DNA from: Raillietiella orientalis
Lineage: Eukaryota
Length of the DNA stretch: 64,000 nt
Direction of reading: 5' to 3'
Assembly (NCBI GenBank): GCA_036172245.1
Contig: JAYWIR010000013.1
Coordinates: forward strand, 4,402,001-4,466,000
A program made the translations under genes and the position numbers. Shown here one piece after another: positions 1 through 60,576 of this stretch (within the stretch, counting starts at the first letter, position 1; each line of letters begins with the position of its first letter). The notes beneath the pieces were generated by a model. The model saw only the letters and a list, made by a program, of their open reading frames with translations, searched no databases and was not told where the DNA came from.

Positions 1-623
1 GGGCACCCAGGATGACCTCCTGATGTTTTATCACGGAGGAATCCAGAGTGGGTCCCGATTGCAGCACTTCACAGGAAGACGGGAAGACCGAGACTGCGCA
101 GCATGTGGAGACGACGACACGAGACTTCACGTCTTGACGTGTCCCACACTGCTGCATGACTGGCTGATCCTGAAAAGGATCATAATACTTACCAACAAGT
201 CCGTTATGGAGATCCTCGCCGGGATGTTTCATGGGGGTGGTAATGTTCCCTGTTACAATCCCATGGTGAGGACGACCATAGCCCCCTTCATCACCGCCAT
301 ACTTGTGCGGTGGTGGAAAATGAGGAAAGCCAGAAGAGCCGCACCACCGATGGAGATCCTACAAGGGCTCTTGAAGAGGGAAATCGGCATCAGGAACTGC
401 GGGAATATCCACGCCTGGACGTACCGATTCATCCTGAAGAGGATCCAGGACGACGCCCGGGACCATCCAGCTGGAATTCCCCCCTGAAAAGCAGAACTCT
501 AGTGCAACCCAAGGATACTTAAGTGCAAAATGTTTGTATTGAGTGAATGAGGGTGCGAATGTAAATATTGTATTTTTATAGAAAAATAAACTTATCCCAC
601 CCCTTGCGGGACTTGGGGAAACT
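1..623 (+). mobile_element. 3' end of L1/Tx1-like LINE, family 'B' (ORF2 C-terminal CCHC region + 3' UTR)
   Basis: ORF 23-487 has a C-x2-C...H...C motif (DCAACGDDDTRLHVLTCP) and closely matches the minus-strand ORF at 53519-54214. Its terminus AATAAA-CTTATCCCACCCCTTGCGGG...GGAAACTT matches the reverse complement of 53246-53285. Confidence 0.85.
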
Positions 624-2110
624 TGGCGATCGTGAGAGGCGCTGCCTCTTGCAGATTGGAGAATTCGCTCGTGGCCTTTGCGACCGCTGGGGCGCTGCTG
701 TAAAGGTTGTACTCTCCTTAGCGGTTTCTTCCATGGCCGCAGTAAGCGCTGCGTCCGCGAGCGAGGTTTGCGAGTTTTTCGGCTGTTTCTTCGCGGTACT
801 CGGCGTTTGGAGCACCTTGGCCGCTGTAGGTTTAGCCGGCACGGAGTTCTTTGCCCGCGGGCGCGATTTTCTTGTATCGGGCGAGCGACCACATTCCTGG
901 CCACTAGCCGAGGCCTTGATAGTAGGCTTTGCGGTCGCGATGCCGACAGTGGGAGGCTTCTTCCCCTTCGGCGCACTCTTTCTTGCATTGGAAAATTCGC
1001 TGCGAGGTCTCGGTGAGATCTCGCATTGCTCGCGAGCTTCTCTCGTCTCGGTAGCCTAAGGCTACGCCGGGACGCGTTTTTTCATGTTTTGCTCCCCAAT
1101 TTTGTGGAGGGGAGAAGGAGTTTTCTGCTCATGCGCGCTCACGGTTTTTGCAACGCTCTCCGAAGTTTCGAGGTTTTTTTTCTCTCTATTCGCGGCGTTT
1201 ATTTCGCAATGCGTTACGCGCTTCGATCTTGCGCTTTTCGTTTTTCAAAAGGAGCTCCGAACGCGTCTCTTTTGTGTGCCCGGGCTCGTGGCAGTAACGG
1301 CAAGCGGCCGAGGGACACTTCGTAAGGCAGTGTCCCTCCTGCCCGCATTCCGCGCACGCAAGCGTTTGCCCCGCAAACCACAGGCAGGGACGGTCATTCC
1401 ATCCACCCGCAGTCGCGCGGGCATTGCGCAGCGATCCGCCATCATCACGCGCACCTGCACGAGCCCGCTGTGATGGTCTTCGAAACCCTCACCAGGGTTT
1501 GGCAACCTCCAAAGCGCGTGAACGGAGGCGAATTTTTCAAGGACCTCCACGACCTGGCGGTCCGAAAAACCCTTGCTCACTTCACTCAGCCGGACAACGA
1601 ACGACTGATCTGATGTGGTGGGGAGTATTTCCTGCCCACGAATGAGCAGCGGCGTGTGCAGCAAACGCGGCGTAATGAGAGCGTTTTTAGTGGACACCTC
1701 CCAGTAGCCGCACCCACTCTTGGGAATGAGGGACTCCAGCTGGACTCTCTGAACTCCAATCCGTTGGAGTTCCTGACCTAACTCGCGCCCAACCCGCTCA
1801 GGCGTAAGGACACTTACCTTATACCTGAGTGCAGGCGTGTAGGCATTTGCTACATACGCCTGCAGCTCAAGGCTGTCGGGCGAAGTTCTTATTGTAGCCG
1901 CGAGGGCAGCTACCTGGGCAAACTTCCTCGACGGCGGCGAGGACAGTGGCTCGTTGCTAGCAGCCGAAACCACCATCTCAGGAGCAGGTGACGTTCCCTT
2001 CTTGTGGCTGATGTTCTTCGCTCCCATTGCAGCACAGAAGCACAGCAGAACAAAAACAAACAAGAGTCAGCCTACCGCGGAGCGACGCAAAAGCACGTCT
2101 GTACGCGACC
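624..2110 (-). mobile_element. 5' part of LINE 'Y' (5' UTR + degenerate ORF1), interrupted at 624 by the B 3' end
   Basis: ORF 1245-2063 (AYVANAYTPALRYKV...VHALWRLP...RLRVDGMTV) is homologous to the other ORF1s and very similar to 24686-26047 (+). The 5' motif GACGTGCTTTTGCGTCGCTCC is at 2079-2099 (rc). Confidence 0.85.
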
Positions 2111-4550
2111 ATCGCTGATGCGGGAGACGGGAGATGTTCCTGCTTCCTTCCGCTCAGGAAAGGTGCGGCTCCTGCCGAAAGGCGAGGATTTGCGCCACCT
2201 TAGCGATTGGCGTCCGATCACCTTGGTGAATTCGGACGTCAAGCTGTTCTTCAAACTTTGGGTTGCGCGGCTGAGGAAAATAGCAGCGTCCTTGGTAAGT
2301 ACGGAGCAGACGTATGCTGTTCCGGAGCGGTCCATGGAAGCGAATCTCTTGTTCGCGCGAACATGGGTCGAGTTGCAGCAGCGCGTGGCGTAGCACAGCC
2401 AGGCAGCTGGAATCGCCGCTGCCAAAGGTGAGCGGCGGTGTTCAAGGTACGATGGAACGCCGGAAACCTCAGCAGTCGCCTTCTATCTCTGCAAAGCGTT
2501 CGACAGCGTCAACCAGGACCTCCTTCTTGAGATTCTAGGAGCCTAGGTCTCTCGACGCACCTCATCGCCTACTTGCGCTCCAGCTGGCGTCACGCTTTAT
2601 GCTGTACCTCCTTCAGCGGGCGCAACGTATACGGCGTGCTCATGCAGCGGGGTATCAGGCAGGGAGACACCTTAAACCCCCTGCTCTTCAGCATCTTCTT
2701 TGAGTTGGTGCTGACGGCTTACAGGCTGACGGTTGCCAGCCTGCCGAGCTTCTGCCCGGGAATACCGGCCGTGTCCGCATATGCTGACGACCTTATCCTT
2801 TTGCTGACAATGTTCATTCAGGCGTCAAGCCTCAAGGACTTCTTCGAGCTCATTCGTCGGAGTGCGGGCTTGTGCGTCAACACGACGAACTCAACCGTTG
2901 CACCGGTAGGCTCTACGTGGGAGGGGCAGTCCGACTGGATCCGCATGGGGATCTCCACGGGCAGGTGCTTTAAGTACCTTGGTGTTCCCATGTGCGCCTT
3001 CGGTCCATCAGAAGCGTGTTCGGACTGCCTTCACAAGTCCGAGACTGCTCTTAGTCCGTTACAAGGTGGCGAGTTACTCCTGTCGGAACGGGCCTTCGTG
3101 TGGAACATCTTCGTAGCCCCCCTCCTCCGTCCCCTCTTTTTTGTTTGTCCCCCTTTCTACTCGGCTAAGCGTCGGGCGCAACGCCTGTTGCGAAATGCCT
3201 TGCGGCAACCGGCGATGTCTAGGATACGCCTCAAGGACTTCACAGCTCCTCGGCTTGTTGCAGGATTGGGCATCCTGACGCTGGTGCCAATCGGACTGCT
3301 AGTGCAGTTCCTCCAGCTGGCACTTTGCGCCCAGCTATGGACTGCTTCCTGGTGTGTTCCAGCGCGGCTGCTGCTGCGGCGCTGAACGGGTGGCAGCGGA
3401 CAACGTTCGTAGCACCTGCGCACGGAGTGCGCCCAGAGAGAAGTCGGCTTCCCACTGAAGCAGCTCTCCTCGCTTCTGGGAAAGCATGCTTGGATCTCCT
3501 GCCGGCCGACTAACTTAACGCCTGCAGGCAATGAGCCTTATCGTCCTTGGCAGCGCAACAATATCTGTCTTGTTTGGAACTCAGTTGCGCAAAACTTTCC
3601 GCAAACTGTCAAGTGGTGGAGGTGCTTGAAGACCAGGAGCAGTGGACACGCCTAGCCACTACGCCACTCGCCGAAGCACTGTCTGCACTGATGGTTTGAG
3701 GCGACAGTGACCTACCGTGGAGGTGGGAGGTCGCCTGCAAAATTGCAGGCGAAACAAGACTGCAGGGTGGCTGGAGGACTTGCGGGCTGGCAGACGCTGC
3801 CACGCGTCGCCTTTGCGCCAAGGGACTTTTCCGGTGGAGCGAGCTCCTTGGTGTGCCCACCTAAGAACTTCTGGTCCCTTCTGCGTGCTTGGACGCGACT
3901 GTGTTCCCCACTCGGTGGAAACAGGACGCTTCTCTGCTGGTGCATTGAGGTCTTTACAGCAACCAGCGCGCGCGCCTGATTTCCGAGTGAGTTGCGTTCC
4001 CGAACTGCGTCAAGTGCGCAGCGGTGGAATGGCTTCCGCATTTGCTGTATGAATGCGGTGCCCGCCAGGAGCTGTGGCGGCGGATGTCGTCAGCGTTCCA
4101 GCACCCCGGAAACACCGCACTGGATTGGATGTGCCGCTTCTTCACGCGTGGCAGTCTTTCTGTTGAAGCGGTCATCGCAATCATCAGCTGCGTCCGCGTC
4201 ATTGTCAGTGTCCCCCACGTATTCCAGAGGCGAGCAGTGCCAACATCGCTGCCCGACACTGCAGCCTGCAACCTGCAAATGGCGGCCGGGTGGCCACATC
4301 TTGGAGCAGAACTGAGGAAGGAGATCGGCGGCATTCACCGCCGGTTCTGAGAATAGGAACGGCTGGACTATAGACCCTTATCCCTACCCTCCCACATAAT
4401 TTATTTATTTATTGTCCCCTCCCTCCCATTCCGAACTCTCAGTGTGCCCGGCCTGTGTGCAGGGTAATGTACTCCCCATCTTTTGTTCCCCTTGGCTGGG
4501 AACACAGTTCGCAGAGGTTTTTATCAATAAACGTCCCGGCGTAACCGGGT
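2111..4550 (+). mobile_element. 3' part of LINE 'Z' (decayed RT, CCHC, 3' UTR)
   Basis: RT motifs WRPITLVNSDVK, RGIRQGDTLNP, AYADD and FKYLG, plus C-terminal CVKC...HLLYEC, are split by stops and frameshifts. Ends in AATAAA + CCCGG-CGTAA-CCGGG at 4526-4549. Confidence 0.9.
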
Positions 4551-4554
4551 AATA

Positions 4555-5733
4555 AACGACGACGGAGCAGCTTTTCGTTTTTTCGCGGCGCGGAACGGTT
4601 TCGCTCCGTTTCTCCACGTTCTTTCTTTTTTGGGGTTCTTTTTCTTGGGGTCGAACTTCTGCCACCCTGGCTCCTGATTGTCGCCCTCGACCTTCTCGGC
4701 ATTTTCTGCCGTGTTCTCGAAACTAGCCTTCGCCTTGGTTGCGCTGGTGACCTCCATAGCTTCAGATCGCGCTGCCTGCTTCTTTCGTTTTTTCGCTGCG
4801 TGCTTTCTCGCATTTTTCGCAGACGCGACGCGGACTGAGTTTTGGTTCCACACACGACGAGTGTACCCCTCTTGCTTGCACAGCTGGCACTAAACGCACG
4901 GACTCCTCATTTTGAGGTGACAAAAGCTGCTTCAGCACCCGCAGAACTTGGCTTTACCCACATATCGCACATCAACGGATTCACCGTTGACGGTCAGTTT
5001 GTGGGGAAATTCACACTCCTCGCGGAGCGTTACTCGCGCTGCAGCCAGGCCGCCAAGCACCCCGTCGTAATCCACGAACGGAGTGGGCTTACCCAACAGC
5101 GCGTGCACGGTCGCAATTTCTTTCAGTGCGTTCCGGACGGCATCCTTGGTCATCCGGAACGTAATGCCGGTAATTGGGAGTAAGGTGAGTAAAGGTGAGT
5201 AATCACTGACCGGTCTTCGGTAATTGGGAGAAGTCTCCGGCTGTCCATTATTACGGAGGTTCGCAGAAGTCTCTGCGCAAGGGTTCCCTCCCTGCAGATG
5301 ACTTTTAGAAACTGACCCCGCTTCTGAGAGACATGGACAGAAGCTCCTCCTTTTGTACTTCGAGAGCGCGCATCGTCTGCGAGAATGCACGCGCGGTCTC
5401 TGGAGAATACAAATTCCCTAGCTTTTATAGAAGGGGTGGGTTATACCCTTCCTTTTAGTTAGGCACGCATCTCCGCCATAGCCGCTGGCGTAGGTGCCGC
5501 AGCCACGGCGTTCCAAACTCTGGGTAGGGTCGGGGGCGCATCCGTGCTGGCGGGAGCCCTCACTTCCATCTTCTCCGGATGCAATGGGGTCATCGCTCCC
5601 GGATCCTCATCGGTGGTGGGATCAGGCATTGCTGCCGAATCCTCCACCCACATTAAGCACAAGCACCAACGGAAACGAAACTCTGGAGCAGCGAAAAGCC
5701 ACGTCCACTCGACGCTCCGCAATCTCAAAGATT
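4555..5733 (-). mobile_element. 5' part of LINE 'X' (degenerate ORF1), cut at the C-S-V-V motif by Z
   Basis: ORF1 motifs ITGITFRM...VHALLGKP...HKLTVNGESVDVRYVGK, PGWQK and KSCSVVV. 5' motif at 5685-5705 (rc). Confidence 0.8.
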
Positions 5734-5809
5734 AAGACTTTTTAAAGGCCTCGGTCCGCGAGTTTTTCGAGTTCAACCGGGATTGCCTGCCTTGGGGATG
5801 CGGTGTTGC

Positions 5810-8748
5810 CACCAGGGTACGCCCGTGACGTTTATTTCGAAAACTCTACAGCAACGTTGTATACGGCCCCAATAAAGGCCACACAACACCGGTAGTGCCG
5901 GGACGCCGGGACGCAGCTCGGCAAGACGCTCCTCGGCAGTAGAGGGGGATGGAGGAGAAAACAAAAATAAAAATAAAGTTGGAGAAAAACAAAAAAAAGT
6001 TTTGAGGGAAAGGTAGGGATCACAATTCACTGGAAGGAGGGTCCATCCTTAGCAGGACACCCTTGTGGTCCATCCTCATGCTTCCCAGTTGGGGTCATCT
6101 CGCAGCTCTCCGCATAAAGCCGACCGCATACGGGATGACATCCCTCTCGCTGGCATCCACTCCCTCGTCGCGAGTATCGCTCCAGGCCGCCACGATGCCT
6201 CGGATCCAGCAGAGGGCTGCGAGGGCTGTGGCGGGCTGCAGGGCGTCCCGTACAAAGAAAAGCCGAAGAACTTCTCTGGGCGTGCTGCCCATTGGGAGAC
6301 CGAGGGTCGTCCCGAACCGTTCCCATAGGGGTCGGAGGGCAGCACAGTCAACAAGTAGTTAAGGGAGCGATGCCCGCTCCCCACACCTGGCACATTCAGG
6401 CCTTACACTTCCCCGTGTCCAGTGGAAGCGGGGCGCGTTGCAGGGTAGACCCCAGTGCAACAGCAGCAGCGCCGTTTCCTACCCCTTCAGGGGAAGAAGC
6501 CTGGATCTGAGTAATACTGAGGGCCACTTCATGTCATCCGTCGTGATGCCGAGCAGCTTGCCTTATCTTTGAAATCCATGCGGGAGGGCACTCGGGTCGT
6601 GGCATCTCCCAGTTCTCTCATGGTCCAACCGCTCATCTTGCTTTCTCTGCCTGCCATTCGGCAGGAGACTTGCCACTTTGTTGTCCGGCCGCTGGTTAGA
6701 GCCCTCCGTAAGAAGGGCAGCTTTGAAGCTAAAGGGGTGGTCTCCGCCCACGTGCTCCTGCCGGGACACTCCATGGTGGTCAGTAGAATGCAGCAGGCCT
6801 TGGGGCCGAATCGCAGGTGGTTCCAGTCATGTCCGGTAGGATGGTTCAACTTGTCCCGCGTCCCAACTGATTTTTCCAGCCAAGCGAGGGAGTTGGCAAT
6901 GCTGCATATCGTCCAGCCATTTTCCATCACCAGGGCCTCCATGTGTCCAAGGAGAAGGCCGCATCTCCTGACCTTCCTGCCGAGGCACAGAGGAAAAGAC
7001 GCGAGTCCTGGCGTCCTGGATACACAACTGGCAAGGATGTTGGCCGGAACGCAACAAGCAGTGTTCCATGTCTTTGCTGCGATGGCTAGGGTGCGCCATC
7101 GCAGCTGCATGTCCAAACGCTTTAGCGTCAGAAGGCCAAGACCGCCGTCCTGACGCGGAGCGCATTAGTCCTTTAGAGGCACACGTAACCTTTCGCTGAC
7201 CGAGAGGGCGATGCGGAGAAGGTCTTTGGTCCTCTTATTCAACCCATGGGGACGGGGCAAACAAAATGCAGGGGGCGGAGGATGGGAGCCGCGAACGCGT
7301 TGCACACCGCGGCCCGTTCCGGTGAAAGGAACTTGTCTTCAAGGAACGGGCCGATTGTAAACTCTACCTTTTGAAGACTACCTGACGAGGCTTCTGCGAG
7401 GCAGAAGTTCCCCAACGGGACTCCCAGGAACTTCAGGTACCTGGCCGTGGGGATGCCCAAGCGGATCCAGTCAGGCCAACCAGCCCACGTCGCACTCACC
7501 GGTACCACCGACGACTTTGCCTTGTTTACCCGCAATCCAGTCCCACGGCTTGGGAGGTCAAAGAAGTCCTCGACTGCGGCTCACGGGGCGGACATGGGCA
7601 ACTTCAGCAGAAGATCGTCGGTGTATGCTTCTATTGCAGGCGTGCCGTGGCACGAGCTCAGCAAGGCCGCCAAGGTCACCTTGTACGCTCTCAGCACCAA
7701 CTGAAAATAGGTGCTAAAAAGCAGGGGACTTAGGCTATCGCCGTGCCGCTTGCTCCGCCGCGCAAACAAGCCGTACGTTGTTTGTCTGCTTGAGGAGAGG
7801 TTGATTAACGCATTCCGCCAGCAAGAGCGCATGTAGGAGAGAAGGGAGGGTGGAAAGTTCATGCGACCCTGGAGCTCCAGCAGTAGCTCGTGGTCCACAT
7901 AGTTGAACGCCTTGTGGAGATCGACTGCGATCGTTAGGGCCTCCTTCCGCACCTCGGTGTCCGTTCCCAGCACAGCTGGCGGCTCCAAATTGGGGTTGCC
8001 AATTCTTGTCTCTGTTTTGTGTTGACATTTTTGCACATGGAATCATGTGCTCGCGAAGAGCAGCTTGGCATTCATACTTCGCCCAGGAACAGCGTATGTC
8101 TGCTCCGGGCTAATTATGGAGTCGGCCATCTGTCCTAGACGCAAAGCCCACAGTCCAGCAATCAACTTGAAGGCCGTGTTCACAGTTGTGGCCGGACGTC
8201 AATTGCTCAGTGTTCTCAGGTCTCCTTCCTTAGGGGGCAGTCTCACTTTGGCTGCCCGAATCGAAGCGGGAACGTCGCCTTCGTCTCGGTTCAGTCAAGT
8301 GAACTGAAGCACCAGGGGTGCCCGCTCTGCCGCTAAGCATTAGAAAAACTCCGCGGGCAGGCCGTCCTTCCCTGACGCCTTGCGCCTCTTGTGCCTTTTA
8401 ATACCGGCGAGAATTTCACCGGTAGTAAAAGGCTCGTCAAGGCTAACCATCTGCTTTTCCCCTATTGCCGGGCGCCGTACGGAAGCAGGAGCCGCTAGAC
8501 ATCCGGCTCTGGGGGTGCCCTGGCGTAAAGGGAGGAATAGAATAGTCTCACGAGGTGCCTGATAGCGAGTGGGGCCGAGCTCCCTCGACCCTGTTCGTCC
8601 AGCAATCTGCTCGATCCAGAGTGCCAAGCTTAACGCTCGGCCCCGGCTCGACATTCGGCCAGGCGAAGGACATTGGGATTCCTCTCGTACAGGTATTCCT
8701 GTAAATAGGCCGTATGGATGCAAGCCCCTCTCCAAATCCGTGGAGAGC
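5810..8748 (-). mobile_element. 3' part of LINE 'M' (decayed ORF2 from post-EN linker to 3' UTR)
   Basis: KASGKDGLPAEF, AVDLHKAF, GDSLSPLLF, AYTDD and YLKFLG in ORFs at 7239-8750. Terminal AATAAA + degenerate hairpin at about 5810-5836 (rc). Confidence 0.85.
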
Positions 8749-8749
8749 A

Positions 8750-10772
8750 AACGTGTTTTTCAGTCGCTCCCGAGTGAGTCGACAGGAAGCGGTTGTTTTT
8801 GTGGTGTTTTGTGTGGAACATCGCTGGTGTCCGATGGCAACCTTGCCTGAGGACACCACGATAGAGGTAGGCGTGGGGAAGGCTTGTTCACCCCCACAGC
8901 CTACAGAATCAGGGGCGTCCGCCGCGGAATCGCCCTCGCCGCTCAAGGCGAGGAGCTGGAGCTCTATGGTGGCCGCGCCTAGCGCGGAAGCCATGGCCCA
9001 GATGGCAGCCTACCGGGTAGCTGGGTACCAGCCCAGCTTGGTGTACCAGGTAGGCAATCTCTTTGACGGGCGAACTGCACGCGCTTTTTTGAAGGCGCTG
9101 CAGAACGGCAACGTACTAGAGAAGCATCTTGACGGTCTATCCGTGCTCAGCGGGTGTCAGCGCGTCGAGGTTGTCTGTAAGGACATAACCTTGGCGCAAA
9201 GCTTGATCACTACCCCGCTGAACGTGGACGGGCGCAAGATGCTGCCAGTCACGATGGACCGCTTCGTAGTGGTCCATCTGACTGGCATCACCAGCCGCAT
9301 GACGCGGTCTGCGGCTGGTGATCAACTGAGAAAATTCGTCCAAGTACACGCGCTATGGCCAAAGGTCACAATCTTCGATGGCCAAGATAGCCTTCTAGGG
9401 GGCAGGCCTCCGCGCGTGTGACGGTAAAGAAGAATAGTGGGCTTCCTCACAAACTAGAGGTCAATGACGAAGTCGTAGACCTCTGGTACGTAAGGAAACC
9501 CCGCTATTGTGGCTACTGCAATGCAGTAGGACACCTTCGTAAGAAGTGCCCCAACATTGTGTGCTACTTATGCGGGGAGAAGAACTACGTGCGCCGCGTG
9601 TGCCCTAAACGCCCCGCTCCGGTGCCGCCTGCAGCCAAGAAAGCGCAGGCTAAACGCGGAAACTTGGTCGAAAGACCAAAGAGAGATACTGGCCGGCAGC
9701 AGCCGCATGCCCCTGTTCCTCCCACACAGGCGTTGGAAGAAAAACCTTCCGAAGACGCGGGAGTCAAGGACGGCTGGCAGATGGTTGAGGCCAGAAAGGA
9801 GAAAAAGGTGCCCCCCGCTGAACCCGCGAAAGCGGTAAAAAAGACAGCCGGCAAGGTGAAAAAACCCCCACGCTCAAAGACTCTACGGGAATGTACGGTG
9901 GCACTGGAACGCATAGCCGTTCCCGAGACTGCCACCCGGGGCGAGGAGCCTGCCCTCGCCGTTTCCGCCGTGCTTGAGGTTCGCGACGGCGAACCCTCTG
10001 TTTACACAGAGGGTGAGCCGCGCGACGCGCCGGTCGAAGCCGAGGACGCCGCGTTCGCGCAGGCTGCGGAGGAGCTCGCGGCCACGCTGGCCGAGCGTGA
10101 GATCCCCTCGCGCAAGGCCGTGCGAAGGCCGGCTTCGTCGAAAAAAACCCCCACAGGTGAGTTAGACCTGGGGGACGGAAGTACATCCTCCTCCTCCGAG
10201 GCAACTTCCAGGAATTCGGGACGCAAGTCCCCGAAACCCAGGAGGCGCCTATCCTCCACCAGCGAGGAGGAGCAGCAGGAAGGCAGCGGAAGCGTGGGAA
10301 TCCCGGAGGGGGAAGTCCCACGCTCGGAAGCCGTGGAGCCGGCCATCCTTATGGAGAAGGGTGAGCAGGGGGCGAAGTCCTCCCTGCAGTCGCGGAGCCT
10401 GAACAGCCCGCTTCCATGGAGGAGGGCCAACAGGTAGGCGCGAATCCACCTGAAAGTGACCCGCTGGACGCGGCATTACCCATGGGGGAGGGGGACCAGG
10501 TGCATTCAGCGTCTGACTCTTCTCCTCCACCTAGCGTCCCGCCCCAACAGCTGGCGGACGCCGCATCGCCATCTTCCCAGGAGTAACACCTGGGCTCGCC
10601 AGTGGCCGTCGGATTCGCGCAGCCTGTTAAAATGTCAACCGGCTGCGCGACGACGGTAACAGGCGAGATACAGCCGACACCCTGCGTAAGCTCGACCTGG
10701 CCCTGCTGCAGGAGATCCACGTGATCACCGCGAAACACGCCCAGGAGATCGAGACGATCGCGGGTGGTCAGT
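8750..10772 (+). mobile_element. 5' part of LINE 'N' (ORF1 with two zinc knuckles + start of endonuclease); same family as Q
   Basis: ORFs 8714-9421 and 9418-10437 contain CGYCNAVGHLRKKC and CYLCGEKNYVRRVC. EN start LALLQEIH at about 10700. Highly similar to ORF 58741-60270. Confidence 0.9.
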
Positions 10773-11500
10773 TGGTTATCATCCGGGTGCGCCGGGGCGT
10801 TTGTTACAACCTATCCGGGAACAGAGTTCCTGGACAAAGGGAAAGACAATAGACAAAGGGGGGGGATCCCGGACACGCAGGTCGGTATGCCGAAAGTCCG
10901 GAACGGAAGGGAGGGGACCACAAATACACTACTATAAAAAATAAAAATAAAAATATGGTGGGCAGGGGACAGTGGTCTTTGGTGAGTCCGTTCCTTCCTT
11001 TTAAAACCCGCGATGGATGCCGGCGATCTCTCTCCTTACGTCCTGTGGCAGATGGGTCCACTCGGCAGCCTACGACATCCTTGCGCTGGCTAATCCGGTG
11101 GGCTGACGAACGATGGCCAGCTTCTGCAACTCTCGGTGGGCCTTGTCGATGGCGCGGGTGCAACACACGGTTGCAACGACATCACCCAAAGACAGGCCGC
11201 CTGGCGTGAAGAAGCGGCTTATCAAGTCCCTCGCGGTGTCCCCCTGGTGCGGGAGAGCTGAGGCCAGCGTCTGCCAAAGTCCTAGAAGGGCACCGCAGTT
11301 CAGGAGCAGGTGCGGGAGCGTTTTTATTTCCCCGCACTGCTTACAGTTTGGGGAGACAACTCCCCCGGAAACACGGTTCGTCCGCTGGTTGGAGTGAAAA
11401 CCCCAATGCACCAGCATGATGACGTCCTGCTTCCACGAAAGGGGGAACCCAGAAGTGTTCAAACAGGAGGGAAGAACCACAAGTTCTTCGGGGACCACAC
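10773..11500 (-). mobile_element. 5'-truncated LINE 'L' 3' end (CCHC + 3' UTR)
   Basis: ORF 11070-11498 has HWGF...PNCKQCGEIKTLPHLLLNC. Terminal hairpin at about 10782-10800. Confidence 0.85.
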
Positions 11501-11509
11501 TTGAGTGTT

Positions 11510-11696
11510 CATATTTTTCTTTTTATTTTTTTATAGTAGTGTATTTGTGGTCCCCTCCCTCCCGTTGCGAACTTTCGGCATACCGACCTGCGTGTCCGGG
11601 ATCCCACCCCCTTCGTCTCTTGTTTTTCCCTTTGGCCAGGAACTCTGTTCCCGGATAGTTTTCAATAAACTCCCCGGCGCATCCGGGTGATAACCA
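11510..11696 (+). repeat. second copy of the L 3' UTR; inverted repeat of 10773-10957
   Basis: Reverse-complement match along about 185 bp, including GTGTATTTGTGGTCCCCTCCC, GGAACTCTGTTCCCGGATAG and the terminal TGATAACCA. Confidence 0.9.
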
Positions 11697-21099: not shown

Positions 21100-22274
21100 A
21101 GTCGAATGTTTTGTGCGCGCTGAGAGGAGGTGTTTTCTCGCTGCTTCTAGGTGCCAGGAACCCTTTGTAAGTGCAAGCGTCGTGTGATAAGACGGTCGAT
21201 CAAGCAGCAATCCCTGACACGACTACAAAAGGGCGAGGCGCCAGAGGGTAAACGCAACGTCGCGTCCATCGGGGATGGAGGTGGGGGCATCCCCTTTCAC
21301 AGAAACGGTCCTCGCTGCAACGCGTGCGTGGAGAGCCGTTGCAGCGGCGCATACACCTACAGACGTAGCGGCATTTAATGCCTACGTGGAGGAGGGGTAT
21401 AAACCCTCACTGTTCTACAAGGTAGGCAATCAGTATTGTTCCGTGAGAGAGAGCCTATTCTACAAAGGGATGCGCGCTCTCAATGTAAAAGAAAAGCTCA
21501 GCGCTATGACTATCCGCAGCGGAGTGTAGTACGTTGATGTCATCTGCAAACAGGCAGATCTGGCATAGCGTCTGCTGCAAACCCTCATGGTGAGAGTCAC
21601 GCCTAGGCTCCATCTCATAACAATAGACCGCCATCTGGTGGTCCACCATTTAGGTATTACTGCGCGGATGCGGAAAGAAAAGGTTCGCGCCGTGTTGGAA
21701 GATTTTGGAACGGTCCATGCGCAGTGGTCCAAACCTAGTCACTTTGCGCACTATTCCGGACTGCAATGCGGCCTCACGGATGCACGCGTCATCGTCCGGG
21801 AGAGCTTCAGTCTTCCCCACAAACTGGTGATAGGCGGCAGAACCGTCGACCTATGCTATGTGGGGAAGCCGAAATAATGTGGCTTCTGCAATACGTCCGG
21901 ACACCTCAAAAAGTGGTGCCCCAACGTGCAGTGTGAGGTATGCAAAAACATGTAACCACACACGGCAGGTGTGCCCACAAGCAGCTATTTGCGTAGTATC
22001 CGCGCGTAGCACGAGAAAACGCTCCATACAGCTACAAAAAAGGCTGGCGGCAAAAGCTGCCGCGAAGGCTGTGCCACCCGCACCCACGGCTCAGGCCGCA
22101 CCCGAGACCCCAGCGAACACCGCCGACAAGGTCGAGGTAAACGGCCAAGAGACTGGGTGGCAGGTGGCAAAAACCAAAAAAACAAAGAAAGAGGGAAGAC
22201 TAGAGGAAAAAATCGCCTACCAACAGAAGCAGAGCAGGGCAGTGCGATCATCGAAGATTGCAGCGTCGTCGCTT
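21100..22274 (+). mobile_element. 5' part of LINE X' (degenerate ORF1), cut at C-S-V-V by Z'
   Basis: EGYKPSLFYKVGN, GITARMRK...VHAQWSKP...HKLVIGGRTVDLCYVGKP, TGWQV and DCSVVA. Confidence 0.8.
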
Positions 22275-22276
22275 AC

Positions 22277-24684
22277 TACCCGGTACCTCAAGACGTTTAT
22301 TAATAAAAATCAGCTGAGTACTGCGTTCCTACGCATGGGGAACAGAAGATATGGAGGAGGGTTCCCGGCACGCAGGCCGCGCTCACTGAGAGTTTGGAAC
22401 GGAAGGTAAGAGAGAATAAACAAATAAATAGGATGGGAAGGTGGAGATAGAAGTATGCAGTCCAGCCGTTCCTATTCTCAGAACCGGCGATCAATGCCAC
22501 CGATCTTCGTCCTTACTTCTGGACCAAGTTGTGGCCACCCGGCAGCCACTTGCAGGTTGCAGGCTGCGGTGTCGGGGACCGATGTTGGGACTGCTAGCAT
22601 CTGCAATAGGTGGCGGGCCCTGACAGTGGCGCGGACGCAACAGATGATTGCGACGACCGCTACAAGAGGAAGACCACCACGCGTCTAGAAGCGGCGCATC
22701 CAATCCAGTGCGGTGTGTCCAGGGTGCAGGAGCGCTAAAGACAGCCGCCGCCACAGCTCCTGGAGGGCACCACATTCAAACAGTAAATGCGGAAGCCATT
22801 CCACCGCTGCGCATTTGACACAGTTCGGGGACGCAACTCCCCCGTAAATCAGGTGAGCGCGCTGGTTGCAGCACACACCCCAATGCACAGCGGAAAAGCG
22901 TCCTGTTTCCAACGAAGGGGGAAGAGAGTCGCGTCCAAACACGCAGAAGGGACCACAAGTTCTTCGGAGTGCACCTTGAGGAGCTCGCTCCACCGGAAAA
23001 GTCCCTTGGCACGAAGGCGAAGGGTGGCAGCGTCTACAAGCTCGCAAGTCCTCGAGCCGCCCAGCAGTCGGGTTTCGCCTGCGATTTCGCAAGCAATCTC
23101 CCACCTGGCCGGCAGGTCACTGTCGTCTCGCACCATCAGTGCACACAGTGCTTCGGCGAGTGGCGTAGCGGCTAGGCGTGTCCACTTATCCTGGTCTTCC
23201 AGCACCTCCCCCACTGGACAGTATGGGGAAAGGTTCACGCAACGGAGTTCCAAACGGGACACACCCTGTTGCGCTGCCCAGGACGAGAAGGCTTCCAGCC
23301 TCCAGGCGTTGAAGTTAGTCGGCCGGCAGAAGATCCATCCGTGCTTTCCCAGAAGCGAGGCGAACTGCTTCAAAGAGGAGCCGAATTCTCTCTGGGCGCG
23401 CTCCGTGCGCAGATGCAACGAACGTAGTCGGTCGCCACCCGTGCAGCGCCGCAGCAGCACTTATGCTGGAGAAAACCAGGAAGCGGTCCAAAACTGGGCG
23501 CAAAGTGCGGAACTGCACTAGCAGTCCGATCCGCTCCAGCGTCAGGATGCCCGATTCGGCATTCCGCCGAGGAGCCGCCAAGTCTTTGAAGTGTATCCTG
23601 AACCTCGCCTGTCCCCACAAGGCGTTTCGCAACAGGCGTTGCGCCCGACGCTTAGCCAAGTAGGGATGAGGACAAGCAGAAAAGAGGGGGAGGAGGAAGG
23701 GGGCAACGAAAACGATGCACATCAAGGCCCATTCCGACAGGAGGAACCTGCCGCCTTGGAACGGACCCAGAGCAGTCTCGGCCTTGTGAAGGCAGTCCGA
23801 CCACGCTTCTGCTGGACAGAAAGCGCCCAAGGGAACGTCAAGGTACTTCAAGCACCTGCCCGTGGGGATACACAGGCGGATCCAGTCAAACTGCCTATCC
23901 CACGAAGAGCGAACCGGTACAACGGTTGATTTCGTCCTGTTGACGCTCAGGCCCTTCCCCAACGAATGAGCTCCAAGAAGTCTTCGAGCCTTGACGCCGG
24001 GACATGCTTAGCAGCAGGAGAAGGTCGTCAGCATAGGCGGCCAGAGCCGGAGTTCCCGGGCAGGAGCTCGGCAGGTTGGCAGGGTCAGCACCAACTCAAA
24101 GAAGATGCTGAGGAGCAAGGGGCTTAAGCTGTCTCCCTGCCTGATACCCCGCCGTATGGGAACGCCGTTTACGTGGAGCCCGCTAAAAGAGATACAGCAT
24201 AAAGCGTGGTGCCAGCAGGAGCGCAAGTACACGATGAGGTGCGTAAGGAGGCCTAGGTGTGCCAGAAGCTCCAGAAAGAGGTCCTGGTTCACCCTAACGA
24301 ACGCTTTGCAGAGATCAACGGCCACCGTTAAGGCGACCGGTGTTTCATCGTGCCTTGAGCACCGCCGCTTACGTTGAACAGCAGCGCTCTCGACTGCGTG
24401 GCTCTGCTGCGCCACGCGCTGCTGCAAATCGAACCATGCTCGCACGAAAAGATTCGCGTCCATGGACCGGCCGGGAACAGCATACCTCTTCTACGGACTT
24501 ACCAAGGGCACTGCGATTTACCACATTGGCGCGACCCAAAGTTTGGAGGACAACTTGACGTCCGAATTCACCAAGGTGATCGGGCGTCAGTTGCTGAATT
24601 GGCGCATGTCTCCGATTTTCGGCAAAACACGCACCCTTGATGAACGGAAAGAAACGGGAACATCTCCCGTCTCCCACATCAACG
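22277..24684 (-). mobile_element. 3' part of LINE Z' (decayed RT to 3' UTR)
   Basis: RRGIRQGDSLSP, CLKYLD and PNCVKCAAVEWLPHLLFEC. Collinear with 2111-4550. Confidence 0.9.
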
Positions 24685-24685
24685 C

Positions 24686-27600
24686 CGGTCGCGTACGGAC
24701 GTGCTTTTGCGTCGCTCCGCGGTACGCTGACTCTTGAGTGTTTTTGTTCTGCTGTGCTTCTGTGCTGCAATGGGAGCAAAGAAGAACATTAGTCGCAAAA
24801 TTGGAAACGTACCTGCTTCTGAGATGGCGGTTTTGGCTACTAGCAAGGAGCCTCTGTCCTCGCCGACGGCGAGGACATTCGCGCAGATCGCTGCCCTCGC
24901 AGCTGCAATGAAACCTTCGTTCGACAGCCTTGAGCTGCAAGCGTATGTAGCAAATGGCTACACGCCTGCACTCAGGTATAAGGTAAGTGTGCTTATGCCT
25001 GAGTGGGTTGTGCGCGACTTTGGCCAGGAACTCCAAAAGATTGGAGTTCAAAAAGGACAGATGGAGTCCATGATGCCCATGAGTGGATGCGACTACTGAG
25101 AGGTGTCCAGTAAGGACGCTCTCCTTACGCAGCGTTTATGCATACTCCGCTACTCATTCGTGGGCAGGAAATACTCCCCAGCACTGCGGAGCAGTCGTTC
25201 GTTGTCCAGCTGAGTGGAGTGACTAAGGGCATTTCAAACCGCAAAGTCGTGGAGGGCTTTGAAAAATTTGCCATTATTTACGCGCTTTCGAGGTTGTCAA
25301 ACCCTGCTGAGGGTTTCAAAGACCACCACAGAGGGCTCGCGCAAGCGCCAGTGACGATGAAGGTTCGCCGGGCTATGCCCACGCGACTGCAGGTGGATGG
25401 AATGACCGTCCGCCTGTGGTATGCGGGGCACACGCTAGTGTTCGCGGAATGCGGGCAAGAGAGCCAACGCCTTACGAAGTGTCCCTCGACCGCTTGGCGT
25501 TTCTGCAACGAGCCCCGGCACACAAAAGAAACGTGCCCGGAGCTCCTTCTAAAAAACGAAAAGCGCAAGAACGAAGCGCGTATTGCATCGCGAAATAAAC
25601 GTCATGAATCGAGAGAAAAAACCTCAAAACTTCGGAGAGCGTTGCGAAAACCGCGAGCGCGCATGCTCAGAAAACTCTTCCTTCCCTCCACAAAAAAGGA
25701 GAGGGAAACAGGAAAAAACGCGTCGCGGCGAAGCCTCAGGCTACCGAGCCGACGGAAGCTCGCGAAGAATGCGAACTTTCACCCAGAACTCGCAGCGAAT
25801 TTTTCAAAGCAGGAGAGAGTGCGCCAAAGGGAAAGAAGCCTCCCACTGTCGGCATCGCGACCGCAAAGCCTACTATCAAGGCCTCGGCAAGTGGCCAGGA
25901 ATGCGGTCGCTCGCCCGATACAAGAAAATCGCGCCCGCGGGCAAAGAACTACTAGGCCGAGCAAAATTGCTACAACAGTGCCCTTAGCGGTCGCCAAGGC
26001 AACGCGCGAATCCTCCGATCTGCAAGTGGCAGCGCCTCTCGCGATCGCTGATGGAGTCGCTTACGCCTGCGTGGAGGCAGCACTTCAAGAGGCAGCCAAA
26101 GCAGCGCCTCTTACTTCCGCGGACGCAGTGCCATCTCAGGAGGGCAAACGTAACTGCGACGCGAAGGAAAACGGCTGGATACTGGTGAGAGAGGTTATTA
26201 AAAAGAAACCGTCAAGGTACTCACAGCTCTATGTGAAGGTGAGTGGGCGGAAGAGACCCGCGAAACCATCCCAAAAAAAGATTGCGATCCTTTCTTCCTG
26301 TGCAGTCGTCCTCTCGCGCATGGAGCAAGAAGCGGCTGCTGCAGCTAAAAGGACGAAAGTCTTAGTCGCAGTAGCAGAAAGCGCTAAAAAACAGGTAGCA
26401 AATGATTTCTCAAATTCAGGGAAACTGAAGCGGCGCCTGGAAAGCGCTCGACTGTCGGATTCTGATCCAGAGTCCGACACAATGAGCTCACAGCGCGAAA
26501 CCCGCCCGAAACCTCGCAATCGCCTCCCGAATACCCGCTAGAGCGTAGTTGCCGAAGAGGATCTGCTGCCGGGGAGCAAAGAGGAGGGGATGGACCTCAC
26601 CTCTGAGCTACCGGCAACAAGCAGGGCAACTTCGAATGGAGATGTCCACTCTCCAAGTTCTGCCGTTCTGTCTCGTGACCACTCGCTGGACCAGGCGACA
26701 CACCTGTGCTCACATTGCCAGCCCTAATGCAGGAAGTCGCCTCTGTTCGTCGGTTCAGCGTAGCCTTTAGGAACGTCAACGGGCTTCGCAGGGACGGAAA
26801 GAGGCGCGGCGTGTAAGACACCCTGCGAAATTACGACTTGCCGATCCTTCAGGAGATGCATTACATCTCCGACGCGGAGCTTGCCTAAATTAAACGGCGC
26901 GCGGGTGGCACCCTGTACTGGCGAGAAAATTATGCACAATCGTGAGGAGTCGGGTTTCTCGTTAAGAGTAGGATGGAGGGAGCAGTGCGCAGCGTTCCAT
27001 TCGACCAGGAAGGGCGATTAGGCCAACTTGTACTCAAGTGGTCAGATTCAATCGACCTTGTCCTGACGAACGTCTACGCGCCGAGCGGCTTTCATCGGCG
27101 CGCCGAAAGAATCAAGTTCCTTGATGTGCTGGAGAGGCAATGCCTCAGGAACTTCGGAGACAGAGTGGTACATCTCGTCGTAGGGGACTTCAACGTCCAC
27201 CTGCTTTCCAACGAGACGACGTCCCTGGAGGAACGGTCGCGGGTGGAAGAGGCATGCGCGTCAATGCACGCGCGTAACTTAGAAGCCAGCGAGCCTGGAC
27301 TGCAAAGGTGCGTGGATCACGTCTACCTTCATTAACACCTACTCTCACGAGTGGGAAGAAGAGGCAGGTTGTCGTCCACTTTATAGGACCATGATAGGAC
27401 GGAGTTCGAGCTACTCCCGCCGGGCAAGGGACCTCCGAACAATGTTTGGAGGCTGCCGGCGGATTGGCTCAGTCGTCCGTATGCAGCGGAGCATCTTTGC
27501 CAGTTCCTTCGCGGCTTCGCCATCCGGCAGCTCGCAGACTGTGACCATCTCCAAAGATCGGCTCGCGAGTTTTGAGACCGGTTCCCTATGCACCTCCAAA

Positions 27601-28440
27601 CGCGCGGTTTTGAAGAAGGCGTGGCCAATAGCAGAGAATTTATGCATGACTGCAACTTGTCTAGACGTGCTGAAGTCCGGCACCTCGCAGTGTACAAGAC
27701 CAGGGCCGAGCGCCAAGTCTGGCAGTCTGGAGCGGCTATTCTGCGCGACGACCAAGGCCGGGAATGCTCGGCTCCTTCCGAAGTACTGCGAACACTAAGG
27801 CGTCACTTCTCTTTACTCTACGCCAAATATCTGACGGAGAGAATCCTCTCGGAACTGCTTCTGCTACGGGGTGCACAAGGCATCGGCAAGGAGGAACGCT
27901 CCTGACTTCACGAGCCCTTCTCGTTGGAGGAACTTTCTTCCGCCAACGCAGGACGCAAGAAACGGAAGACGCCAGGTGAGGACGGGCTACCCGCGGAGCT
28001 CTATCAGAGCTTCGCTGCGTAACTCGCCCCAATGGTGCTCAGACTTTCGACGCTGATGAGGTTGACGTGCGATGTCACTTCTTCCTTCCTCTCAGCGAGA
28101 GTGCGTCTCCTTCTGAAAGGAGGATATCTGTTCCAACTCAACAACTGACGTCCGATCACGTTAGTGAATACGGACGTCAAGTTGTTTTTCAAGCTGTGTC
28201 ACACGACCAAGGAAAGTCGGGAGTCCGTGGTAAGCCCGCAGCAGTCTTACGCTGTACCGGTTAGATTCATGCATGCAAACCTTTTTTTCGAGCGCACCTG
28301 GTGGCAGCTGCAAGAGCACGTTGCGGCGGACAGCCGAACAGTGGAAAGACCCTCTGTTGACTGCGAGCGCCAGTGCAGACGGTCGGAAGAAAGGCCGAAA
28401 GCCTTGGCAGTAGCAGTAAATTTGCATAAAGCACTCGATT
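24686..28440 (+). mobile_element. 5' part of LINE Y' (ORF1, EN, RT N-terminus), cut at KALD by W
   Basis: ORF1 in 24734-26541, TAATG overlap at 26725-26729, EN motifs TNVYAP and VVGDFN, RT motif AVAVNLHKALD. Confidence 0.9.
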
Positions 28441-34606: not shown

Positions 34607-37600
34607 ACCGGCTGGAGCCACAGCCAACGACGGACGTGTTTTCGAAGCGCTCCGTCAACAGAAGGGTTCCTTTGTAATGTGTCGCATGCTTTCAAGGCTG
34701 TTGACGAGCAAAGATGCCTGAAAATGCCGCCTCTAAAGGCTAAAGAGGCGGAAATGCTCCGCTTTCCAAGCCTGCTGAGGTGAGATCTCGCCCAACCAAC
34801 CAATCGACCCCCGCCGCCCCGACGAGGGCATGGAGCGCGGTAGCAGCAGCCGAAACGCCGGACGTCTCCGCGGAAATTGCGGCCTACATACAGAAAGCCT
34901 ATAATCCCGCCCTCCTGTAAAGAGTAGGCAATTTATATTCGCCTCTCCGAGCACGAAAATTTGAAAATGCCATCCTTAAAATGGGCATTAAGGAAGAGGA
35001 GACTACGTGCCTCTCCGTGCGCAACGGCGGGCAGTTTGCCGAGTTAATCTGCAAAGATGCAGCTCTGACTCACAAACTGCTCTGCACGCCTGTGCAGATG
35101 GAGGGTCGCAACATCCTTCTCTACACGGTGGACCGTTCTATTGTGATCCACCTAACGGGAACAACGGTGCGAATAGACGATACGTCCATTCGCGCCGAAA
35201 TTGAAAAATACGCGGCGATTCCTGCCACGTTACTAAAGCCGAACCCTTTCGGTATTAGAACTGCCTTTAGCGGGCTCGTCGCCGAACGCGTGACCCGTCG
35301 CGAGGAATGCAAACTTCCTCACAAACTCGAGATCGGCACCAAGTTTGTCGATGTATGGTATGTGAGGAAGCCGAAGGTTTGCGGCATATGTAAGACGTTC
35401 GGGCATCTCAAACAGAGATGCCCGGATGCATTATGCCCCACGTGCAACTCTAAGGGCCACACTAAAGTGGTGTGCCCAATGAACGTCGCCCCACTGCCGT
35501 CAGAATCTTCCCAGAATATTAAGGAGAAGATTGCGACTGAAATAAATCGAAATGTAATCGCGGAAGGACCGCCGACCGAAACAGTCGTGCAACAAGCAGC
35601 GGACTCATTAAAAGAGAATCCGAAACAGACTGCCGACAAGGAAGGCAGGTAGCTGGTCGCGCTGCGACCAAGTCGCGAATCGAGCGTAAGTAGCGAAGAA
35701 GGAGCTTTCAGGAAAGCCACGGAAGAACTGGTGGCCATGTTCCAGCAGCCACCCAAGGCAGAGGAAAATGACTTGAGTTCCCCGGCTGAGGCAAAAGGAC
35801 CAGAGTCTAGCGAGTCCGAAGCCGAAGCCGGCAACGCACCTTCCGTCGATCGTTGAAAGTGCAGGGCAAGACCTAAGGTAGGCAACCCGCGAAGCACAGC
35901 TCCTTCTCAGGCGGAGGAGGGAATGCTCTCGGCAGACGAGAAGGCGAAGTCCGCGAGGTCTCGCGACCCCTCGTTGGAAGCGGTCTTGCCTAAGCAAGAT
36001 ACACCGCCCTTGATCGACGCACAGCCTCCATGCGAGGCACAAGCCGTCGAAATTAATGCACTTCTCCCTCCTCCTAAGCAGGAGGCGGCAATCACCTTAT
36101 CATTATAAATGCACCGTCGCGTGGACTTTCCTCTCGCCGGGGCTTGCGCGTAATCAGTTGGCACGTAAACGGGTTGCGCGAAGTCGGAAAGAGGAGAGCA
36201 ATAGCCGCCATCTTTCGAGATCTCGATCTGGCACACCTGCAGGAAACGCAAGTGCTCCATGGAGAAGAGACCCAGGAAATTGAAACGATCGCATGAGGGC
36301 GGCTCACATGGCGCAACGGAGATCACCACAACCGCGCTGTGGCGTTCTTTATGAAGCCAGCCGTGGATCAGGCGCTGCGCGGCGTGCAGTTCGACGGGGA
36401 AGGTCAAATCGGGCAGCTTGTGATCAAGTGGTCCAACGCGATCGACCTCGTGATTACGAACTAGTACGCTCCAGGCGATAGCCAAAGCTCCGCCGAACGC
36501 GATGCTTTCTTCGGAGGTCTGCCGCGAGATTGTCTGGCCGAAACGAACATAAAAAGGGCACACCGGATTGCCGGGGAATTTAACGTCGGCCTGCTGGCAC
36601 GTGCGCCCGGATCACGAGCACAACTGATCAACGAGATGTGCGCAGCAATGCAAGGGCGCAACTTGTTGAACAGTGACGATGGGACGGAGACAAGGATAGA
36701 CCACATGTTCCTCGACCATCTCCTGTGCACGCGGGTGGGAAATCGGAAACATTGCTTTCCGCGTTGTCCGACCATCCTCGGCTTGTGCTCGAGATGCATT
36801 CGAGAGAAAGAGGACCACTCTCTCAAACGTGGCGTTTGTCAGGGTACTGGTTGCGCCTTGCAGGAGCAGCTGAACACCTACGCGAATTCCTGCGAGGATT
36901 GAATCTTGAGACGCTCCCGGACTGGGACATAATGGAGAGTTCAGTCCGCGAGTTGTGCGACCAGTTCCCCTTGGACCGTCTTCCCTCAGGTTTCGGAGGA
37001 GAAATCAGGAAAGACGGCGCGTTCCTACAAACCCGTACTCACTCTAGGAATCCCGACGTGCGAAGCCTGGCGGAATATAAAGCTGGAGCTGAGAGATAGG
37101 CCTGGCAATCCGGCTCAGGGAGCTTACTGGACGCTCAAGGCCATGGGTGCTCAACCCCAGCACAGGTGAGCCACATCTTGCGAAATTTCTACTCCGCTTT
37201 ATACGCGGGGCGAACCACAGAGCGCGCCTTTGCGCAGCGATTGCTGCCGCAGGACGCCTCCGCGTTGAAGCAGGAGGATCGAGAACAAATACAGGTGCCT
37301 TTCCCGATGACGGAGATCATCTCTGCCATCGGAAAACTCAAAAAACGGAAGGCACCAGGGGAAGACGGCCTGCCCGCAGAGTTTTACCAACTGTTCGCGG
37401 CGGAGCTGGCCCCCCTGGTGCACAAACTATGCACGCTGATCCGAGAACAAGGGGACGTTCCCATGTCGTTCCGGTCAGCCAAAGTACGTCTCCTTCCTAA
37501 ACAAGGAGACACCCGCGACGTAGGCAACTGGCGTCCCATCACCATAGTGAATGCGGACGCAAAGTTGCTTGCTAAACTTTGGGCTGAGCGACTGGGACGT

Positions 37601-44693: not shown

Positions 44694-44742
44694 CCCCCGA
44701 CCACTGATGCACCGCACTACACCAATAAAGTCGAGCGAGTCA

Positions 44743-44764
44743 GGAGCGCGCAGAAAACACGTCT
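44743..44764 (-). promoter_or_regulatory. candidate internal Pol II promoter element (DPE-like AGACGTG + fixed-spaced GCTCC), representative copy
   Basis: The same 21-nt pattern occurs at the 5' end of X, Y, Y', N, Q, U and U'. RGWCGTG is the original Drosophila DPE consensus found in LINE promoters. Confidence 0.55.
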
Positions 44765-53223: not shown

Positions 53224-53245
53224 GAAGCCAGCTTACCGACTCGGC

Positions 53246-60575: not shown

Positions 60576-60576
60576 C

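Follow-up and report, generated by a model that had tools for sequence, protein, structure and literature searches.

How did two decayed nests of retrotransposons, built from the same parts in the same order, come to lie in one stretch of DNA and to be joined at the same nucleotides? The stretch is a 64-kb window of Raillietiella orientalis DNA (contig JAYWIR010000013.1, positions 4,402,001 to 4,466,000), to which all counts and comparisons below are confined. It is eukaryotic DNA dense with decayed retrotransposons that lack long terminal repeats (non-LTR elements), namely long interspersed nuclear elements (LINEs) of the type with an apurinic-like endonuclease (APE), nested into one another. 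In the nest near its left edge, part of a LINE that we call Z stands between the 5' parts of two others, Y and X; in the second nest, Y', Z' and X' repeat the arrangement in mirror image. An earlier reading of the letters (the original prediction) explained both nests as ordered, site-specific insertions, Z into X and then Y into Z, made independently in each. We find that its observation was largely right and its interpretation half right. Y and Z form one continuous block, most simply joined only once, whose Z end meets the same codons of open reading frame 1 (ORF1) in two independent elements. A composite copied twice into this motif is the account we favour, with about an even chance of being correct.

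Two mirror-image nests

Block A (626-5725) and block B (26048-21105) are mirror images with the same Y-Z-X order, and as inverted repeats their inner ends lie ~15.4 kb apart. The mirrored nests had been placed at 624-5733 and 21100-26047, and a blastn self-comparison bore this out with one inverted match, 845-4564 against 25950-22264, 82.9% identical across 3727 columns. Further out A carries a ~130-bp insertion (702-838) relative to B, beyond which ~85% homology continues to A 626 and B 26048; 626-701 matches Y' 25971-26048 at that level. Homology between the blocks ends at A 626, where the 3' end of another LINE, W, cuts Y. We had considered 630-845 as a lost remainder of X, a candidate rejected because 626-701 is homologous to Y' and 702-838 is the insertion in A. 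Y' continues past 26048, the limit of visible homology to Y, until the 3' end of the LINE E28682 cuts it at ~28440. The Y family is represented only by Y and Y', and Y and Z are found solely as this pair.

All LINE fragments were placed by tblastn, with the proteins of a near-intact element, R, as the ruler (Table 1). Y retains a 273-aa open ORF1 frame (1245-2066) behind a 5' untranslated region (UTR) whose motif is common to other elements. Z starts just before L-M-R-E-T-G-D-V-P in ORF2; its reverse transcriptase (RT) domain matches Pfam RVT_1 at 2531-3385 with 25.1 bits, under the cut-off of 29.6, and the ORF2 stop at 4348 is followed by a 3' UTR with a terminal hairpin.

Table 1. Elements of the two nests and the reference element, in window positions.
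Feature	Position	Strand	Content
W	1..625	+	3' part of a different LINE family, cutting Y ORF1; tail ..GGGGAAACTTG at 615-625
Y	626..2110	-	Complete 5' end (GGTCGCGTAC..), 5' UTR, ORF1; placed by tblastn to the reference ORF1
Z	2111..4556	+	ORF2 from codon ~452 through RT, C-terminal zinc-binding region, 3' UTR; placed by tblastn
Target block in X	4557..4569	-	TGC TCC GTC GTC G (Cys-Ser-Val-Val); final X bases before the Z tail
X	4557..5725	-	5' UTR (motif 5698-5708), ATG near 5642, ORF1 as far as Cys-Ser-Val-Val; placed by tblastn
X'	21105..22271	+	5' UTR (motif 21126-21144), ORF1 as far as TGC AGC GTC GTC G; independent ORF1 family
Z'	22272..24686	-	Second Z copy; 5' start and 3' terminus as in Z, tail ..CCGGGTAGTAAG
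Y'	24687..28440	+	Second Y copy: complete 5' end, ORF1 (to 26541), ORF2 codons ~6-598
R	39280 to ~44787	-	Near-intact reference element with two ORFs

The Z terminus meets the same ORF1 codons twice

LINE copies with a visible 3' end all share AATAAACG together with a stem (CCCGG..CCGGG) and a short tail rich in A. A consensus built from nine such ends, plus E11016b, sets the Z terminus at 4556 (..CCGGGTAATAAA) and the Z' terminus at 22272; the stem is kept in 5-7 of the nine aligned ends per pair, and E28682, one of the nine windows, is out of register. Next to the Z tail, X contributes the reverse complement of TGCTCCGTCGTCG (4557-4569); next to the Z' tail, X' contributes that of TGCAGCGTCGTCG (22259-22271). 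X and X' are therefore cut in ORF1 at the identical nucleotide, after TGC-NNC-GTC-GTC-G (Cys-Ser-Val-Val), with the insert antisense; the original prediction had placed both junctions just after this motif. Both Z copies abut TGCNNCGTCGTCG and both such sites are occupied, while TGCNNCGTCGTC is present only at X and X' (2/2 occupied). ORF1 copies with another sequence at this motif had been said to escape insertion there, and the four that carry a C-x-V-x motif are indeed uninterrupted: V and E56512 (each ACGGTGGCA), R (ACGGTCGCA) and Y' (GCAGTCGTC; its own motif is CAVV, at 26299). The V/R-type form of the motif is ACGGTGGCACTG.

We estimate the chance that a second, random hit in a 5.5-kb element would coincide with the first in both nucleotide and orientation at 1 in 2 x 5500, ~1e-4, which becomes ~0.02 after allowing for ~190 pairs among ~20 junctions (counted by eye from the tblastn map). 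That two unrelated events, or the mis-joining of repeats, should have produced the same junction seems to us barely credible on these figures. The cluster is highly repetitive and the junctions are known from the assembly alone, a point that tells against our own account as well; but both junctions lie within long sequence that differs by 17% between the blocks, which is not how collapsed repeats look.

Two further candidates for recurrent junctions were set aside. W and its relative W' (53873-53241), 81.7% identical, do not form a second pair with a recurrent site, as their flanks are unrelated. Downstream of the ORF2 of E60933 we considered a third junction of this kind, but the ORF1-like sequence there is only ~43 nt long and does not start at the motif.

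Y and Z diverged as one block, X and X' as separate genes

Y/Y' are 86.2 ± 1.9% identical (n = 1260), Z/Z' 82.6 ± 1.5% (n = 2410) and X/X' 56.8 ± 2.9% (n = 1145), and the fall from ~83% to ~57% takes place inside one 100-column bin at 4563/22265. A likelihood change-point scan covering 846-4554, with a threshold from 500 permutations, put the best break at 1007, the end of a 162-bp, 95%-identical patch (846-1007), and the second at 4370, in the more diverged 3' UTR. At the Y|Z joint the log-likelihood ratio was 3.99, against 5.37 for the 95th percentile of the 500 permutation maxima. There are two divergence tiers, not the three-level gradient originally proposed: Y-Z is one continuous block and X stands apart. 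The pairwise identities that had been suggested as a check upheld the distance between X and X' and did not resolve Y/Y' and Z/Z' into separate tiers. They also exclude, as had been argued, a single segmental duplication of the whole nest, since divergence is non-uniform across the three pairs and X and X' are as far apart as unrelated families.

The manner of divergence differs too. Mismatch rates at the three codon positions are even in Z/Z' (.167/.147/.189, p =.17) and Y/Y' (.121/.161/.190, p =.12), suggesting neutral decay of dead copies, whereas X/X' have a third-position excess (.385/.338/.518, p =.01). Within the core of ORF1, identity between X and X' is 59%; X is 53-56% identical to non-Y families, X' 48-53% to those, and both are 43-46% identical to Y/Y', the overall range for X against other ORF1 copies in the matrix being 45-56%. 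Y/Y' (84%) and Z/Z' (82%) are mutual nearest relatives in that matrix by a wide margin. The motif itself uses different Ser codon families, TCC in X and AGC in X'. With an identity no closer than that to other families, different Ser codons and a third-position excess, X and X' are thus independent elements that diverged as working genes, and Y-Z is one unit that probably decayed after copying. Given that X and X' are independent but share the exact point of the cut, it is simplest to suppose that a Z 3' end reached the Cys-Ser-Val-Val block on two separate occasions, guided by sequence; for the Z end we prefer such sequence-directed arrival at the ORF1 motif, at n = 2.

The same measurements bear on a DNA-level origin of the two blocks, either by inverted segmental duplication or a replicative template switch at the 8-bp microhomology CGTCGTCG, or by ancient duplication of the whole nest followed by gene conversion across Z-Y only. 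The inverted layout of A and B at their ~15.4-kb spacing would follow naturally, as would the uniform divergence through Y-Z and the 8-bp identity at the junction, and the 95% patch resembles a recent conversion tract. We nevertheless judge this origin very unlikely. The breakpoint must lie no more than 8 bp from a LINE 3' terminus, although longer exact X/X' matches at homologous positions (14, 13, 10, 10 and 10 nt) would be better switch sites, and recombination between partners that are 57-59% identical is not expected. The third-position excess indicates that X and X' were working genes, and not dead duplicates, while they diverged, and so contradicts the old duplication homogenised by conversion that had been offered as the alternative to ordered insertion. 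RNA copying is favoured instead: the block stops precisely at a natural LINE 3' terminus, as a retro-copied unit must, whereas a DNA duplication could have stopped at any of thousands of positions.

The patch (846-1007 against 25949-25788) adjoins a replaced segment, 702-838 (~137 bp) in A and 25951-25970 (~20 bp) in B. Gene conversion between the inverted copies, or from a third Y copy, may have produced the patch.

The Y|Z joint and the proposed copying of a composite

The Y 5' end adjoins Z just ahead of L-M-x-E-T-G-D-V-P in both copies, as the original prediction described, and it does so at the same nucleotide in A and B, one base ahead of the Ser/Ala-Leu-Met-x-Glu-Thr-Gly-Asp-Val-Pro codons. 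Minus-strand Y, with its 5' end at 2110, meets plus-strand Z at 2111 head to head, and the hairpin tail of Z ends at 4556. Set beside four other RT copies, the bases next to the joint prove to be Z-templated codons, not filler. Given the identical register in both copies and no identity step, the joint was most simply made once and inherited, not formed recurrently.

Head-to-head arms of which the direct one ends at a 3' terminus are a twin-priming-like feature, and it is present here. Classical twin priming of Y and Z from a single RNA was nonetheless rejected, as the arms are merely 64-71% identical over their overlap: across codons 452-598, Y' ORF2 is 71.2% identical to Z and 69.0% to Z' by blastn (66% and 64% in the MAFFT matrix), compared with 82-86% between the copies. 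We also discarded the idea that each segment beginning at a natural terminus is a sign of serial template jumping, because one flank of a deep full-length nest looks alike.

The data establish the anatomy, the two tiers, joints that are identical in both copies and two mutually independent elements, X and X'; beyond this we infer RNA-mediated copying of a Z+Y composite and some mechanism of targeting. In this model, which has in our judgement roughly an even chance, the joint arose once and the composite was then retro-copied by way of the hairpin-bearing Z 3' end and integrated twice, each time at this ORF1 motif but in a different, independent element. The unit would join 2.4 kb from the 3' side of Z (from ORF2 codon ~452 as far as the hairpin terminus) head to head to the complete Y 5' end, its joint derived either from a full-length Y inserted antisense in a Z copy or from twin priming with a second RNA. 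Its transcript would read antisense Y into Z and stop at the Z 3' hairpin, and would be reverse-transcribed in trans via target-primed reverse transcription (TPRT), primed from the ORF1 sense strand nicked directly after ..TGC-NNC-GTC-GTC-G in the unrelated families X and X'. A nicking preference of the Z-group endonuclease could direct the unit there, or the nicked DNA end could pair with a few read-through bases (CGACGACG) on the template RNA. Two reports describe comparable steps for L1: opposite-orientation chimeras with other RNAs have been explained by twin priming on a second template, and chimeras can be re-inserted through independent TPRT events (PMC13174262), and template-target base pairing contributes to target choice (PMC4014453). 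Within the window R lies inside another LINE, S, as clean TPRT-style nesting, with both flanks present, few bases lost at most and no tail-target complementarity.

Weighing one copied unit against repeated insertion

The original prediction amounts to a cascade of four independent site-specific insertions, Z into X and X' and later Y into Z and Z' at L-M-x-E-T-G, each with its own endonuclease specificity. It calls for two separate specificities and for a 5' junction that recurs to the nucleotide on both the Y and the Z side. The identity step expected at the joint is not seen, and the differences in Y and Z are codon-neutral, without third-position bias. RT copies with the intact motif (E28682, R, E48261 and E60933 in a motif scan, and more spanned by tblastn) are in no case interrupted there, and the pairing of Y with Z is invariable. 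The two Z bases closest to the joint, on the other hand, both differ between the copies, in keeping with separate insertions, and Tx1-/R1-clade APE LINEs are known to be target-specific, with transposons among their targets (PMC4640811). We regard the cascade as unlikely overall. Its claim of independent, ordered, site-specific insertions stands, as the simplest reading, for the two arrivals of the Z end at the ORF1 motif (n = 2), and is not supported for a separate specificity of Y for Z or for a Y younger than Z: with no identity step, the same register and neutral decay, Y and Z behave like a single copied unit.

Other points weigh against a composite copied twice. The most direct comes from lesions. 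Z and Z' have no stop in common (those of Z include 2391, 2544, 3383 and 3410, and those of Z', in A-coordinates, are 2208, 2277, 2304, 2805, 3365 and 4141), all 14 of their 14 indels differ between the copies, and the frames of the high-scoring segment pairs suggest no common frameshift in Z or in Y. On our account the composite was copied before it decayed; active masters inserting independently, as in the cascade, predict the absence of shared lesions directly. Y/Y' are, moreover, nominally 3.6 points more identical than Z/Z', the direction that the cascade predicts, a gap that the one 162-bp patch explains. The X remainder and the far end of Y lie outside the window in A and were not found by tblastn within 36 kb in B, so that neither a target-site duplication nor the 5' end of the unit is visible. 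In related families (R, S, E11016, E11016b, E28682, E32109, E48261, W and W') the 3' flanks have no target sequence in common, so strong endonuclease specificity is not a trait of the group. Six of the eight CGTCGTCG sites in the window are empty, and there are just two events, both with the same inserted unit. We accordingly treat targeting of the ORF1 motif as a lead rather than a result.

An endonuclease may not have been involved at all. A free or nascent DNA 3' end in an X-type ORF1, left by a pause or break at the GTCGTCG run, could anneal read-through composite RNA and prime reverse transcription, as one more of the template-switch or twin-priming products frequent in this cluster. Rearranged insertions do occur in the window (the head-to-head arms of V and E6044; the inverted E11016 pair, 91% identical), the R insertion without tail-target complementarity suggests that priming in this group is not tail-dependent, and CGTCGTCG is over-represented, with 8 sites against 2.5 expected and 0/100 shuffles reaching 8. 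This route is nonetheless distinctly unlikely in our view: the pause or break site is purely hypothetical, the other six CGTCGTCG sites are unused, and the template RNA must carry the flank of an earlier ORF1 insertion. Those six sites lie in contexts unrelated to the X/X' junction; two of them, at 10648-10655 and 58672-58679, fall in the homologous ORF2 5' regions of V and E56512.

An extension of the composite account would make Z a 'hyperparasitic' LINE lineage aimed at the Cys-Ser-Val-Val block of competing LINEs' ORF1, which it would enter antisense and inactivate, with the dead Z+Y composite riding this targeting in trans. We think this extension unlikely. If true, the safe harbour of the lineage would be the nucleic-acid-binding gene of other LINEs, and such insertion would be a possible driver of clusters like those of the algal Zepp elements.

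Comparison with known systems

The known targets of target-specific LINEs comprise rRNA genes, small-RNA genes, microsatellites, telomeres and a few transposons, and Kibi and Koshi are family names among target-specific APE LINEs. In the open-access literature searched we found no description of a LINE aimed at a coding motif within the ORF1 of another. Homing of a LINE end to a conserved ORF1 codon block of other LINEs would, if true, constitute a new target class and supply a sequence-level mechanism for the pile-up of L1-clade elements in their own clusters, as in Zepp-like putative centromeric arrays.

The closest likeness in target behaviour is to Tx1/R1-clade APE LINEs, whose targets include other transposons and short repeats (Keno is mentioned in PMC4640811). 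Like them, the LINEs here encode an apurinic-like endonuclease, and the Z 3' junction recurs, in two cases, at one defined sequence; the putative target holds a (GTC)2 triplet run. They differ in that this target would be a conserved ORF1 coding block of other LINE families, entered antisense in two events, and in that related families in the window have no shared target. Zepp and ZeppL of green algae are described (PMC3446292, PMC8226300) as L1-clade LINEs that target existing copies and form GC-rich clusters distinct from their flanks. By that description the window is similar: its LINEs are nested in earlier copies (R in S; eight 3' ends abut LINE coding sequence), and it is GC-rich, at mostly 52-62% in LINE-rich stretches versus 42-46% at 12-18 kb. 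Zepp arrays, however, are described there as mostly tandem 3' ends of 5'-truncated copies, whereas here many 5' ends are complete, several diverged families take part and 7/8 insertions into coding sequence are antisense.

L1 twin-priming chimeras (PMC13174262) resemble the composite in having opposite arms head to head, one of which ends in a LINE 3' end, and in being re-insertable by TPRT; here, by contrast, the arms come from two LINE families and the inverted arm, its 5' end complete, extends over no less than 3.7 kb. The composite would be an example of a two-family, opposite-orientation LINE chimera, apparently recopied as a unit, outside the mammalian genomes where such chimeras have been catalogued. 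SVA and LAVA are composite non-autonomous retrotransposons mobilised in trans by L1. The Z+Y unit would be like them in having no intact ORF and in being copied because LINE machinery recognises its 3' end, and it differs in that two copies are known and the composite transcript is only putative.

The LINEs of the window

R defines the type of these elements. Its ORF2 endonuclease matches PF03372 over residues 24-231 (E = 1.3e-14, 55 bits, cut-off 24.5), and the reverse transcriptase matches PF00078 with 31 and 30.1 bits, above the cut-off of 29.6. The best solved relative of R ORF2 is human LINE-1 ORF2p (E = 2.2e-31), R2 proteins reaching about 2e-4. Zinc-knuckle matches in ORF1 are weak and stay under their cut-offs (zf-CCHC 17.7 bits against 20.8, zf-CCHC_6 17.4 against 22), as does a weak zf-RVT match at the ORF2 C terminus (22.7 bits against 27.5), and the translations show CX2CX4HX4C spacing. 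With a predicted N-terminal apurinic-like endonuclease and an RT closest to L1, the LINEs of the window are, by sequence, of the L1-superfamily APE type.

A protein-database search with R ORF2 returned seven relatives, one of them close (78% identity across 42% of the query), and an atlas search gave generic APE/RT clusters without clade placement. Rfam gave no matches at gathering scores. A metagenome scan with the C-terminal 119 aa of Z produced 270 pattern matches and no relatives, and one with the 3' hairpin pattern no matches.

Other nested and rearranged elements

Several other elements of the cluster are nested or rearranged. E6044 (~5806-8710, minus strand, ORF2 codon 313 to the 3' end) lies head to head with V (8711-10772, plus strand, complete 5' end to ORF2 codon ~90), and both are 75-78% identical to the continuous element E56512; the pair looks like a twin-priming 5' inversion of one element with ~220 codons lost. 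E11016 is an inverted same-family pair, 10773-11505 on the minus strand and a 187-bp copy of the 3' end at 11510-11696 on the plus strand, 91% identical; its 3' termini face outward and both flanks begin CCA.

S (34607-45494) hosts the full-length R antisense (..LEWQESRC / R / (V)LHWGL..), with no long target duplication. It ends in a (TA)n tail (45470-45495), directly followed by the exact 5' end of S2 (ACCGGCTGGAGCC..), which is 91-93% identical to S, so that two members of one family stand head to tail in tandem.

E60933, the nearest family to Z, has no canonical 3' hairpin; at 60576-60932 its ORF2 stop gives way to ~350 nt of sequence unrelated to it, among them a ~43-nt piece derived from ORF1 (DDVAFAQAAE region), after which the E56512 5' end follows. 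At its other end E56512 is cut at ~codon 154 of the second ORF2 half, where it adjoins W' (53241-53873, minus strand, 5'-truncated at ~ORF2 codon 239). The lost 3' part of E56512 is nowhere in the window, and this arrangement breaks simple nesting, so the cluster must also have undergone deletions or rearrangements.

Seven of the eight LINE 3' ends that abut LINE coding sequence do so antisense (W, Z, E11016, Z', E28682, R and E48261) and one in the sense direction (E32109), a bias that is suggestive only (two-sided binomial p ~0.07). The interval 51.2-53.2 kb, which we had considered unique DNA, encodes a minus-strand zinc-knuckle ORF1, so E48261 (48012-53240) is full length. That ORF1 (51234-52645, minus strand) has two CX2CX4HX4C knuckles and no similarity to R ORF1, while the RT of the same element is 70% identical to that of R, which suggests exchange of ORF1 modules between families.

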